From Candidatus Saccharimonadaceae bacterium (GTDB lineage Bacteria > Patescibacteriota > Saccharimonadia > Saccharimonadales > Saccharimonadaceae): a stretch of 56,744 bases of DNA. Shown here one piece after another: positions 14,990 to 15,620 of this stretch. The DNA is taken from NCBI GenBank assembly GCA_039812985.1, contig JBDHUL010000001.1, positions 1-56,744 on the forward strand, written 5' to 3'. A program made the position numbers and the translations under genes. Within the stretch, counting starts at the first letter, position 1. Each line of letters opens with the position of its first letter. The notes beneath the pieces are model-generated. The model saw only the letters and a list, made by a program, of their open reading frames with translations. It was not told the origin of the DNA and made no database searches.

Positions 14990-15620
14990 AACATTCCATC
15001 TACCATATCTATTTTTCGTCGAACGAGGCACGCGTCTGACTATTAGTAAACGTATTGACGGTAAGACACCTCTAGTAACAGCCGGCTTCGAAAATAACGG
15101 TGTTGCGGGGTATATCAGTAATCCTGAGCAAAAAGTATTTCCTGCAAATACATTGACGATTGATATGTTCGGCAATGTATTTTATAGAAATTATAAATTT
15201 TGTGCCGATGATAACATCCTAGTCCTCACATTCAAAGATACACTAAATCGTGGACGCGCATTATTTTTAGCTGCTACCATATCCGCTGGAGTGCGTGGAA
15301 AATTTTCTTACGGCAAGCAATACCGACAAGGAAGTTTTGAGACTACGTCCATAGACTTGCCCATTGATAAAAATGGCAAAATTGATTTTCCATATATGGA
15401 AAAACGCATTCGAGAACTCGAAGCGGAACGCATTCGAGAACTCGAAGCGGAACGCATTCGAGAACTCGAAGCGTATCTAAAAGTTACCGGCCTAAGCGAT
15501 ACGATACTTAGCCGCGAAGAACAAGCCGTTCTAGACGTATTCCGCGCGGAGCAAGCAAGCAAGCAAGCAAGCAAGCAAGCAAGCAAGGTCAGTTTAGCAG
15601 ATTCACAACATTTGCAATAG
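14979..15620 (+). CDS. RM specificity (HsdS/BcgI-B-like) subunit, N-terminal half: TRD1 plus coiled-coil, terminated after a (GCAA)9 frameshift tract
   Basis: 213 aa. GAGGAG RBS 9 nt upstream. TRD-like core (PLVTAGFENNGVAGYISN...TLTIDMFGNVFYRNYKF) followed by helical RIRELEAE repeats and ..LEAYLKVTGL. The frame ends 31 nt after the tetranucleotide tract. Confidence 0.8.
   Translation: MMYKTFHLPYLFFVERGTRLTISKRIDGKTPLVTAGFENNGVAGYISNPEQKVFPANTLTIDMFGNVFYRNYKFCADDNILVLTFKDTLNRGRALFLAATISAGVRGKFSYGKQYRQGSFETTSIDLPIDKNGKIDFPYMEKRIRELEAERIRELEAERIRELEAYLKVTGLSDTILSREEQAVLDVFRAEQASKQASKQASKVSLADSQHLQ
15405..15473 (+). repeat. 24-bp tandem repeat x2.9 (CGCATTCGAGAACTCGAAGCGGAA), in frame, encoding (RIRELEAE)n
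   Basis: Read directly. Units lie at 15405-15428, 15429-15452 and 15453-15473 and are identical over their shared length. Confidence 0.97.
15550..15587 (+). repeat. Tetranucleotide microsatellite (GCAA)9 inside the specificity gene
   Basis: Read directly. Nine perfect GCAA units occupy 15551-15586, flanked by partial units. Confidence 0.97.

Follow-up and report, generated by a model that had tools for sequence, protein, structure and literature searches.

A GCAA repeat between the two halves of a BcgI-like specificity gene in a Saccharibacteria genome is a candidate slipped-strand switch

The specificity (S) gene of a BcgI-like restriction-modification (RM) system found in contig JBDHUL010000001.1 of Candidatus Saccharimonadaceae bacterium is split by nine perfect GCAA units located at positions 15551–15586 of the window (the whole 56,744-nucleotide stretch of DNA that was analyzed), between the two halves of the gene that code for target-recognition domains (TRDs). 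This tract is probably a slipped-strand contingency locus, at which a change in the number of units would switch the S protein between a form with two TRDs and a form with TRD1 only. In the proposed mechanism, replication slippage would add or remove GCAA units, and the ribosome would enter or leave the reading frame of TRD2. Alleles with 7, 10 or 13 units would produce a two-TRD S protein of 376–384 amino acids that directs its partner, the A protein, to an asymmetric bipartite site, and those with 8, 9, 11 or 12 units would produce only TRD1 and helices. The A protein would act as nuclease and adenine methyltransferase, the S protein picking the DNA sequence acted on, and a 24-bp repeat in the helix-coding region of the S gene would form a second layer of variation by altering the spacing of the half-sites. 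We consider it very probable that the GCAA-switched S locus is functional.

The GCAA tract and the reading frames of the S gene

Tandem Repeats Finder (TRF) delimited the tract as 15550–15587 (AGCA × 9.5, 100% matches). It is the sole repeat with a unit of at least 2 bases and at least four copies in the 56.7-kb window, the remaining simple repeats being five T8 runs, and a 16-nucleotide GCAA pattern had 0.00 expected occurrences in 100 dinucleotide-preserving shuffles. In the assembled nine-unit state, the S gene (14979–15620; this and all other coordinates of the RM system refer to the plus strand) codes for a 213-amino acid product in which TRD1, a central helix (CR1) and a second helix are followed by a tail of 10 out-of-frame residues. 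The C-terminal end of this product reads ..ASKQASKVSLADSQHLQ*, and the TAG stop codon of this frame was read at 15618–15620. A GAGGAG ribosome-binding site, also read directly, is located at 14965–14970, 8 nucleotides 5′ of the S start, which in turn overlaps the 3′ end of the A gene (stop codon at 14987–14989). The overlap suggests that translation of S is coupled to that of A. The scan for promoters and terminators gave no signal above shuffled background.

The frameshifting repeat lies in the linker that joins the helix after CR1 to TRD2. The segment that follows it (15587–16117), coding for TRD2 and a C-terminal helix (CR2), is out of frame in the assembly and consists of 176 stop-free codons without a start of its own. 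The alternative frame opens at 15512 and continues through the tract to 16117, with no ATG, GTG or TTG 5′ of the ATG at 15698. Independent translation of TRD2 was considered and ruled out, since the first start codon appears only at that position. Both halves of S matched the Pfam family Methylase_S (E values of 8e-15 for the TRD1 half and 9e-13 for the TRD2 half). Alleles rebuilt in silico with 4, 7, 10 and 13 units coded for fused proteins of 372, 376, 380 and 384 amino acids, and those with 8 and 9 units for products of 204 and 213 amino acids. The original prediction had proposed nine perfect units inside a BcgI-B/HsdS-like gene with a stop at 15618–15620, a complete second TRD lacking its own start, fusion of the halves into about 380 amino acids with 10 or 7 units, and one-TRD proteins with 8 or 9. 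All of these agree with the TRF call and the list of open reading frames (ORFs), with the Methylase_S matches and the assignment of S as Specificity_II by PADLOC, and with the rebuilt alleles.

A further repeat, a perfect 13-bp direct repeat in two copies (CCATATAGTTCAT), was observed at 16250–16275, about 130 nucleotides 3′ of the S stop. L002 (ENA contig k141_62224), an independent assembly of a near-identical strain, has this 13-bp repeat as well.

Tract length in close relatives and linker repeats across the family

Three NCBI assemblies, L099, L100 and L101, whose A proteins are 84% identical to that of the window, matched one another with 0 mismatches over 7,022 bp and differed only at the tract. 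This was (GA)22 in L099 and (GA)25 in L100, leaving S split in both, and (GA)24 in L101, where S is whole and codes for 374 amino acids. Four ENA contigs of the (GA)n sister locus carried (GA)5, (GA)8, (GA)9 and (GA)9; S was split in the first two and coded for 364 amino acids in the other two. Only 2 mismatches in 5,974 bp separate the split (GA)8 allele (L104) from the whole (GA)9 alleles (L103 and L105). In a further allele, with an A protein 86% identical, the tract was (GA)6, (GA)12 or (GA)15, in frame in every case. As judged from these assemblies, slippage that leaves S whole or split is real in the sister alleles.

Within the lineage of the window, the tract has nine units in the window, nine in L002, and at least 14 GCAA-type units in L094, an ENA scaffold (A protein 92% identical) that has a 100-N scaffold gap inside the tract. 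L094 is found at the chromosomal position of the window, with rhodanese upstream and the ABC transporter downstream. When its positions 3291–4562 were compared with 14979–16117 of the window, the central helix, the GCAA tract and TRD2 (82% amino acid identity) were common and TRD1 was unrelated, an example of TRD swapping around a conserved helix. Comparison with related genomes strongly backed the candidate phase variation of the original prediction, with a caveat for the window allele itself. The linker proved to be a repeat hotspot, as described below, and the sister (GA)n alleles differ in length; the window allele showed no variation (9 and 9), and its relative L094 has at least 14. That the window's own GCAA tract slips at a useful rate is what we infer from these comparisons.

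Several observations weigh against a working switch in this allele. Both of its complete assemblies, the window and L002, have nine units. Exact look-ups of the 213-amino acid product and of nine hypothetical alleles (7, 8, 9 or 10 units; two or three helix repeats) gave no match, i.e., no in-frame or other-length variant of the window allele was found among about 15 billion proteins. The DNA pattern of the left flank plus the tract had no match in the JGI metagenome contigs, and a protein-based scan of these contigs returned only two distant relatives. Three A proteins at 100% identity and one at 99% were located on Logan contigs; those retrieved (L001 and L085–L093) end about 31 nucleotides into the 24-bp repeat or the GCAA tract and carry no length information. 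Breaks at about 31 nucleotides fit a k-mer limit (k = 31 assumed). Because the Logan contigs break at both repeats, short-read assemblies of this kind are systematically fragmented there and the locus is hidden from gene catalogues. Judging by rates in Haemophilus, a tetranucleotide tract of nine units is rather short for rapid slippage. No half-S is known to be active with a Type IIB A subunit. In Helicobacter pylori, a Type I S consisting of TRD1 only was inactive (PMC3936762).

The 24-bp tandem repeat (15403–15473; TRF period 24, 3.0 copies, 100% matches) codes for (ERIRELEA)3. Three copies are present in the window, L001, L003 and L094, and two in the near-identical L002 and L085 as well as in the (GA)n allele of L099–L101. 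The A proteins of L002 and L085 are 100% identical to that of the window, or their DNA is near-identical, yet they have two copies instead of three. Homologues have one, two or three copies of the helix repeat with no corresponding change in the C-terminal helix. By analogy with EcoR124I/II and NgoAV, where the length of the spacer in the recognition site depends on how many copies of the helix repeat are present (PMC7383803, PMC6789123), the 24-bp repeat probably tunes the spacer between the half-sites.

The copy number of this repeat also bears on whether the count of nine GCAA units is itself a mistake of assembly or sequencing, in which case the true tract would be in frame and the split S gene an artefact. 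Repeats are error-prone in assembly, the Logan contigs break there, and L094 has its 100-N gap. However, the window and k141_62224 both have nine units even though their copy numbers of the neighbouring 24-bp repeat are different, and a 36-nucleotide tract is easily spanned by ordinary reads. Since nine units were found in two independent assemblies, the count is not a one-off assembly error, and we regard a miscount as highly improbable.

The same out-of-frame state in both complete assemblies would also be found if S were a decaying pseudogene, broken by a frameshift at a mutation-prone repeat in a system that is being lost, and several members of the family do have a split S with no long repeat. 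The state of TRD2 speaks otherwise. Its run of 176 stop-free codons has a chance of (61/64)^177 = 2e-4, and comparison with the L094 orthologue gave a ratio of nonsynonymous to synonymous substitution rates (dN/dS) of 0.17 at a dS of 0.56. By this pattern of substitutions, purifying selection has acted on an intact TRD2, which favours periodic expression over a dead pseudogene. Moreover, the A gene retains all its catalytic motifs, the GCAA tract is perfect, and the homologous site is visibly reversible in the sister alleles. Decay of the system is quite unlikely.

The candidate contingency locus of the window has counterparts across the BcgI-like family. The family sample consisted of 80 related loci taken from species-representative genomes of many phyla, and the mid-S region is covered in 75 of them. 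In these 75 loci, the 400-bp mid-S zone contained 10 long repeats, where the flanks predict 0.9 (Poisson P = 4.6e-8), and the rest of the loci (782 kb) had 23 long repeats, 21 of them homopolymer runs. The linker repeats were (GA)10 in Saccharibacteria UBA1932 (L003), (AGAC)5 in Ezakiella (L004), (AGAA)6 in Peptoniphilus (L007), (AG)10 in Campylobacter majalis (L013), (AGAC)6 in Helcococcus (L019), G9 in Volucribacter (L025), (AGGC)5 in Catonella (L037), G10 in Campylobacter sp. (L066), (CAGAG)18 in Streptococcus danieliae (L071), which is in frame within a 440-amino acid S, and (GA)8 in Mycoplasma (L074). Five of the loci with linker repeats were in frame and four out of frame. Although the units are unrelated, in the loci with a readable frame they occupy one peptide position, after ..ELEAYLxxTGLxDYxLTxxE..L..F and before the ..IGDLF.. 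with which TRD2 starts. The simple sequence repeats (SSRs) of the family were always located after CR1 and never early in the S gene. From these counts, the S linker is a repeat hotspot, and the BcgI-like family has repeatedly acquired repeats at this point. Judged from organism names, the members that bear repeats appear to be animal-associated and the many environmental ones (Sulfurimonas, Sulfurovum, Sulfuricurvum, Flavobacterium and Methylotenera, among others) to be without linker repeats.

Other arrangements were noticed in the same sample. Eight Streptococcus loci (L017, L022, L023, L026, L038, L039, L040 and L053) have (AGAGT)3 at the linker, about 620–670 nucleotides past the end of A, with S whole or split. 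In the two Campylobacter loci, L013 and L066, a single ORF of about 880 amino acids spans A together with the first half of S, and the repeat comes after the central helix; slippage there would turn an RM-half-S fusion into a single-chain RM-S enzyme. Protein P0243 is likewise the product of an ORF of A plus half of S, with Pfam domains N6_Mtase and Methylase_S.

The enzyme and the possible states of its S subunit

By its architecture, and set beside BcgI by description, the locus is a two-gene BcgI-like Type IIB RM system. The A subunit (12971–14989, 672 amino acids), a fused restriction endonuclease and N6-adenine methyltransferase identified by Pfam, PADLOC and motifs, has the HsdM-type methyltransferase core (Pfam N6_Mtase, E 2e-31) and matched over its full length the PADLOC model REase_MTase_IIG (PDLC03616, E 5e-216). 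Its N-terminal region contains the nuclease motif PD..x12..E-x-K (P61, D62, E75 and K77), followed in the methyltransferase by motif I (DLATGSAGF) and motif IV (NPPF); each of the three is conserved in at least 95% of 75 aligned family members. Among the sequences of the Protein Data Bank (PDB), A matched Type I M subunits and, weakly, RM.BsaXI. The 213-amino acid S product matched Specificity_II (E 5.5e-23), and PADLOC identified both halves of S as Type II specificity subunits, far better than with the Type I models. Neither HsdR nor a helicase was found among the neighbouring gene products, as searched through Pfam families and the ORF list of the locus. Instead of the separate HsdM and HsdR motor of the classical Type I systems, the locus has a methyltransferase with a nuclease domain joined to its N-terminal side, and an S subunit with two recognition domains is encoded only in the in-frame state. 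The fused nuclease-methyltransferase, the HsdS-like S and the lack of HsdR or helicase correspond to the BcgI architecture.

The 10-unit fused S was modelled with AlphaFold2, using an alignment of 63 homologues, with a predicted local distance difference test score (pLDDT) of 94.5 and a predicted template modelling score (pTM) of 0.80. In the model, TRD1 is predicted to occupy residues 1–135 and CR1, a 34-residue central coiled-coil helix that contains (ERIRELEA)3, residues 137–170. A second helix (179–198) is followed by the sole low-confidence loop, at about residues 199–209 (pLDDT below 50 at 202–204), and then by the predicted TRD2 (210–343) and the 35-residue C-terminal helix CR2 (345–379). 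The GCAA tract encodes residues 191–204 of this model, that is, the end of the second helix and the floppy loop. The best fold matches were the HsdS structures 1ydx, 1yf2, 7bst_A and 2y7c_A, together with 8w0p_C, which is the S subunit of BsaXI, a Type IIB enzyme; a sequence search of solved structures with S gave no match. More than 1800 database proteins of about 340–400 amino acids cover 96–99% of the fused S, and in most full-length homologues the linker has only 2–4 residues. The GCAA tract is thus an insertion into a tolerant linker. According to the model, the nine-unit product would retain TRD1, the whole 34-residue CR1 helix and the second helix.

The evidence for slippage, i.e., the family hotspot and the sister alleles, applies equally to two views of what this truncated product does. 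The first is a plain ON/OFF switch, where the truncated S would be inactive or unstable, so that 8 or 9 units would mean no restriction or methylation, and 7, 10 or 13 units would be ON. The frameshift in the BcgI-like S of H. pylori was described only as blocking full translation, activity being obtained after correction of the frame (PMC3936762), and in BcgI neither activity is possible without the B subunit (PMC3592470). The position of the SSRs is harder to reconcile with this view: they always follow CR1, although an OFF switch early in the gene would work equally well. Placement after CR1 instead preserves a potentially functional half-S, an argument like that made for Type I hsdS genes (PMC7383803). 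A plain ON/OFF switch is plausible, falling somewhat short of probable.

The second view makes use of the preserved half. A homodimer of the 213-amino acid TRD1-CR1 protein, joined through the central helix, would form an active enzyme with two A subunits and read a palindromic site made up of the TRD1 half-site, a spacer and the complement of that half-site, and slippage would alternate between two specificities; the 24-bp repeat would multiply these through the length of the spacer. The predicted truncation point, which spares TRD1, the 34-residue CR1 helix and the helix that follows, is consistent with this scheme, as is the fact that repeats of the family are never placed early in the gene. 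There is precedent in NgoAV, where a poly-G shift that truncates S at residue 201 leads to recognition of GCAN8TGC (PMC6789123) and the choice between N6 and N7 depends on how many LEAT repeats are present (PMC6789123, PMC7383803). Furthermore, both halves of S start their helices with a D-x-x-[FY]-M-E motif, which points to S being a pseudo-dimer. Nonetheless, use of a half-S is not known for any BcgI-like enzyme, the TRD1-only Type I S of H. pylori mentioned above failed to methylate the expected palindrome (PMC3936762), and CR1 and CR2 diverge past their first residues, so pairing of CR1 with CR1 is not guaranteed. In addition, a new target for a restriction-proficient enzyme would expose unmethylated chromosomal sites to cutting. 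We put this alternation of specificities forward as a tentative possibility, somewhat less likely than the plain ON/OFF switch.

An extension of the scheme would be a combinatorial generator of specificities, in which the GCAA tract toggles between an asymmetric and a palindromic site and the 24-bp repeat independently shifts the spacer, producing at least four methylation/restriction patterns. This extension is doubtful, though conceivable. If true, it would be a phasevarion-like system in Saccharibacteria, with the ultra-reduced genome of an episymbiont, and it would show for the first time that dimers of half-S can function with A subunits of the BcgI type.

The genes upstream of the cassette code for a major facilitator superfamily (MFS) transporter, mannitol dehydrogenase, DUF4332, rhodanese and DUF2200, and those downstream for an ATP-binding cassette (ABC) transporter, L25, DedA and UvrA. 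The A protein is 60–65% identical across many phyla, and its top genome match was a metagenome-assembled genome of Candidatus Saccharibacteria (UBA1932), with 81% identity. The UBA1932 locus and the window have the RM cassette in common, but their flanks are not syntenic, which indicates that the cassette is mobile. For this reason the match of the A subunit is insufficient to identify the host, and the identity rests on a lysM-TM7 RNA (Rfam RF03005, with a score of 67 bits that exceeds the gathering threshold) at 27838–27994 on the minus strand. This RNA marks Saccharibacteria/TM7 and confirms the earlier suggestion of a host of the candidate phyla radiation (CPR) type. In L099–L105, the gene for a GmrSD-type (DUF262/DUF1524) modified-DNA nuclease adjoins the RM cassette upstream of A and a serine recombinase gene is found slightly further downstream, an arrangement that looks like a small defence island.

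Comparison with known switching systems

Phase-variable RM systems have been studied almost entirely in cultured pathogens, and published surveys of genes with SSRs dealt with Type I and Type III systems but did not extend to Type IIB. A literature search found no paper combining Patescibacteria with "phase-variable" and none on repeat-driven switching in Saccharibacteria, in line with the original prediction that a CPR-type precedent was not known; a published listing includes invertible hsdS loci from Saccharibacteria (PMC7672463). A repeat-switched S is apparently new for this group. The locus of the window and its relatives would extend slipped-strand logic to genomes of the Saccharibacteria type and to the BcgI-like Type IIB family, which has been transferred widely. 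In TM7 organisms, a restriction barrier that can be switched could influence phage resistance and the uptake of foreign DNA, and it also matters in practice for attempts at their transformation. If methylation alters expression, the switch could affect the heterogeneity of the population on the host cell.

The system resembles BcgI in that A combines an N-terminal nuclease center with an S-adenosylmethionine-dependent adenine methyltransferase, the B subunit is an HsdS-like protein of two domains, and there is no ATP motor (PMC3592470). The BcgI B subunit is required for both activities of the enzyme (PMC3592470). Phase variation has not been described for BcgI, and the A2B composition and two-sided cleavage are features of BcgI that are putative for the system of the window. 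The BcgI-like systems of H. pylori, compared here by description only, are also formed by an RM fusion and an S protein that a slippage-prone repeat moves in and out of frame. Their repeat is a poly-G tract of 13 or 14 with no second in-frame repeat reported (PMC3936762).

NgoAV, the Type IC system of Neisseria gonorrhoeae, shares with the window a frameshifting repeat in hsdS just past the central helix, the S protein being cut at residue 201 as compared with 213 in the window and keeping TRD1 plus the helix in both, and an in-frame helix repeat, just 5′ of the frameshifting one, that varies between strains (PMC6789123). The two systems differ in that the NgoAV S has HsdM and HsdR as partners, in place of a single REase-MTase A subunit, and in that poly-G and the 4-residue LEAT repeat are found instead of a tetranucleotide and an 8-residue (24-bp) helix repeat. 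Activity of the truncated S was shown for NgoAV and is putative for the window. The TAEL repeat of EcoR124I/EcoR124II is likewise an in-frame repeat of the central helix whose copy number differs between near-identical alleles. There the spacer goes from N6 to N7 (PMC7383803); in the window the unit has 8 residues and the effect on the spacer is a putative one.

In a survey of the Type I genes in REBASE (Atack et al. 2019), 7.8% of the hsdS genes had SSRs, which lay between the TRDs in every case; examples are GCAA[7-29] in Haemophilus parasuis and GCAA[3-16] in Pseudomonas aeruginosa (PMC7383803). As in the window, these repeats are located directly past the coiled-coil region, can have GCAA as the unit, and are predicted to switch between full-length and truncated S; they belong to Type I hsd genes, whereas the window system has no hsdR or hsdM and resides in a Saccharibacteria host. 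A GAGCA repeat of Streptococcus suis was considered as another hsdS parallel and dropped, as it is located in the Type III gene modS (PMC6265453). SSR-switched specificity genes are therefore already known, and because the mechanism is established elsewhere the conceptual advance is modest: what is added is the host group and the repeated gain of linker repeats across the BcgI-like family.

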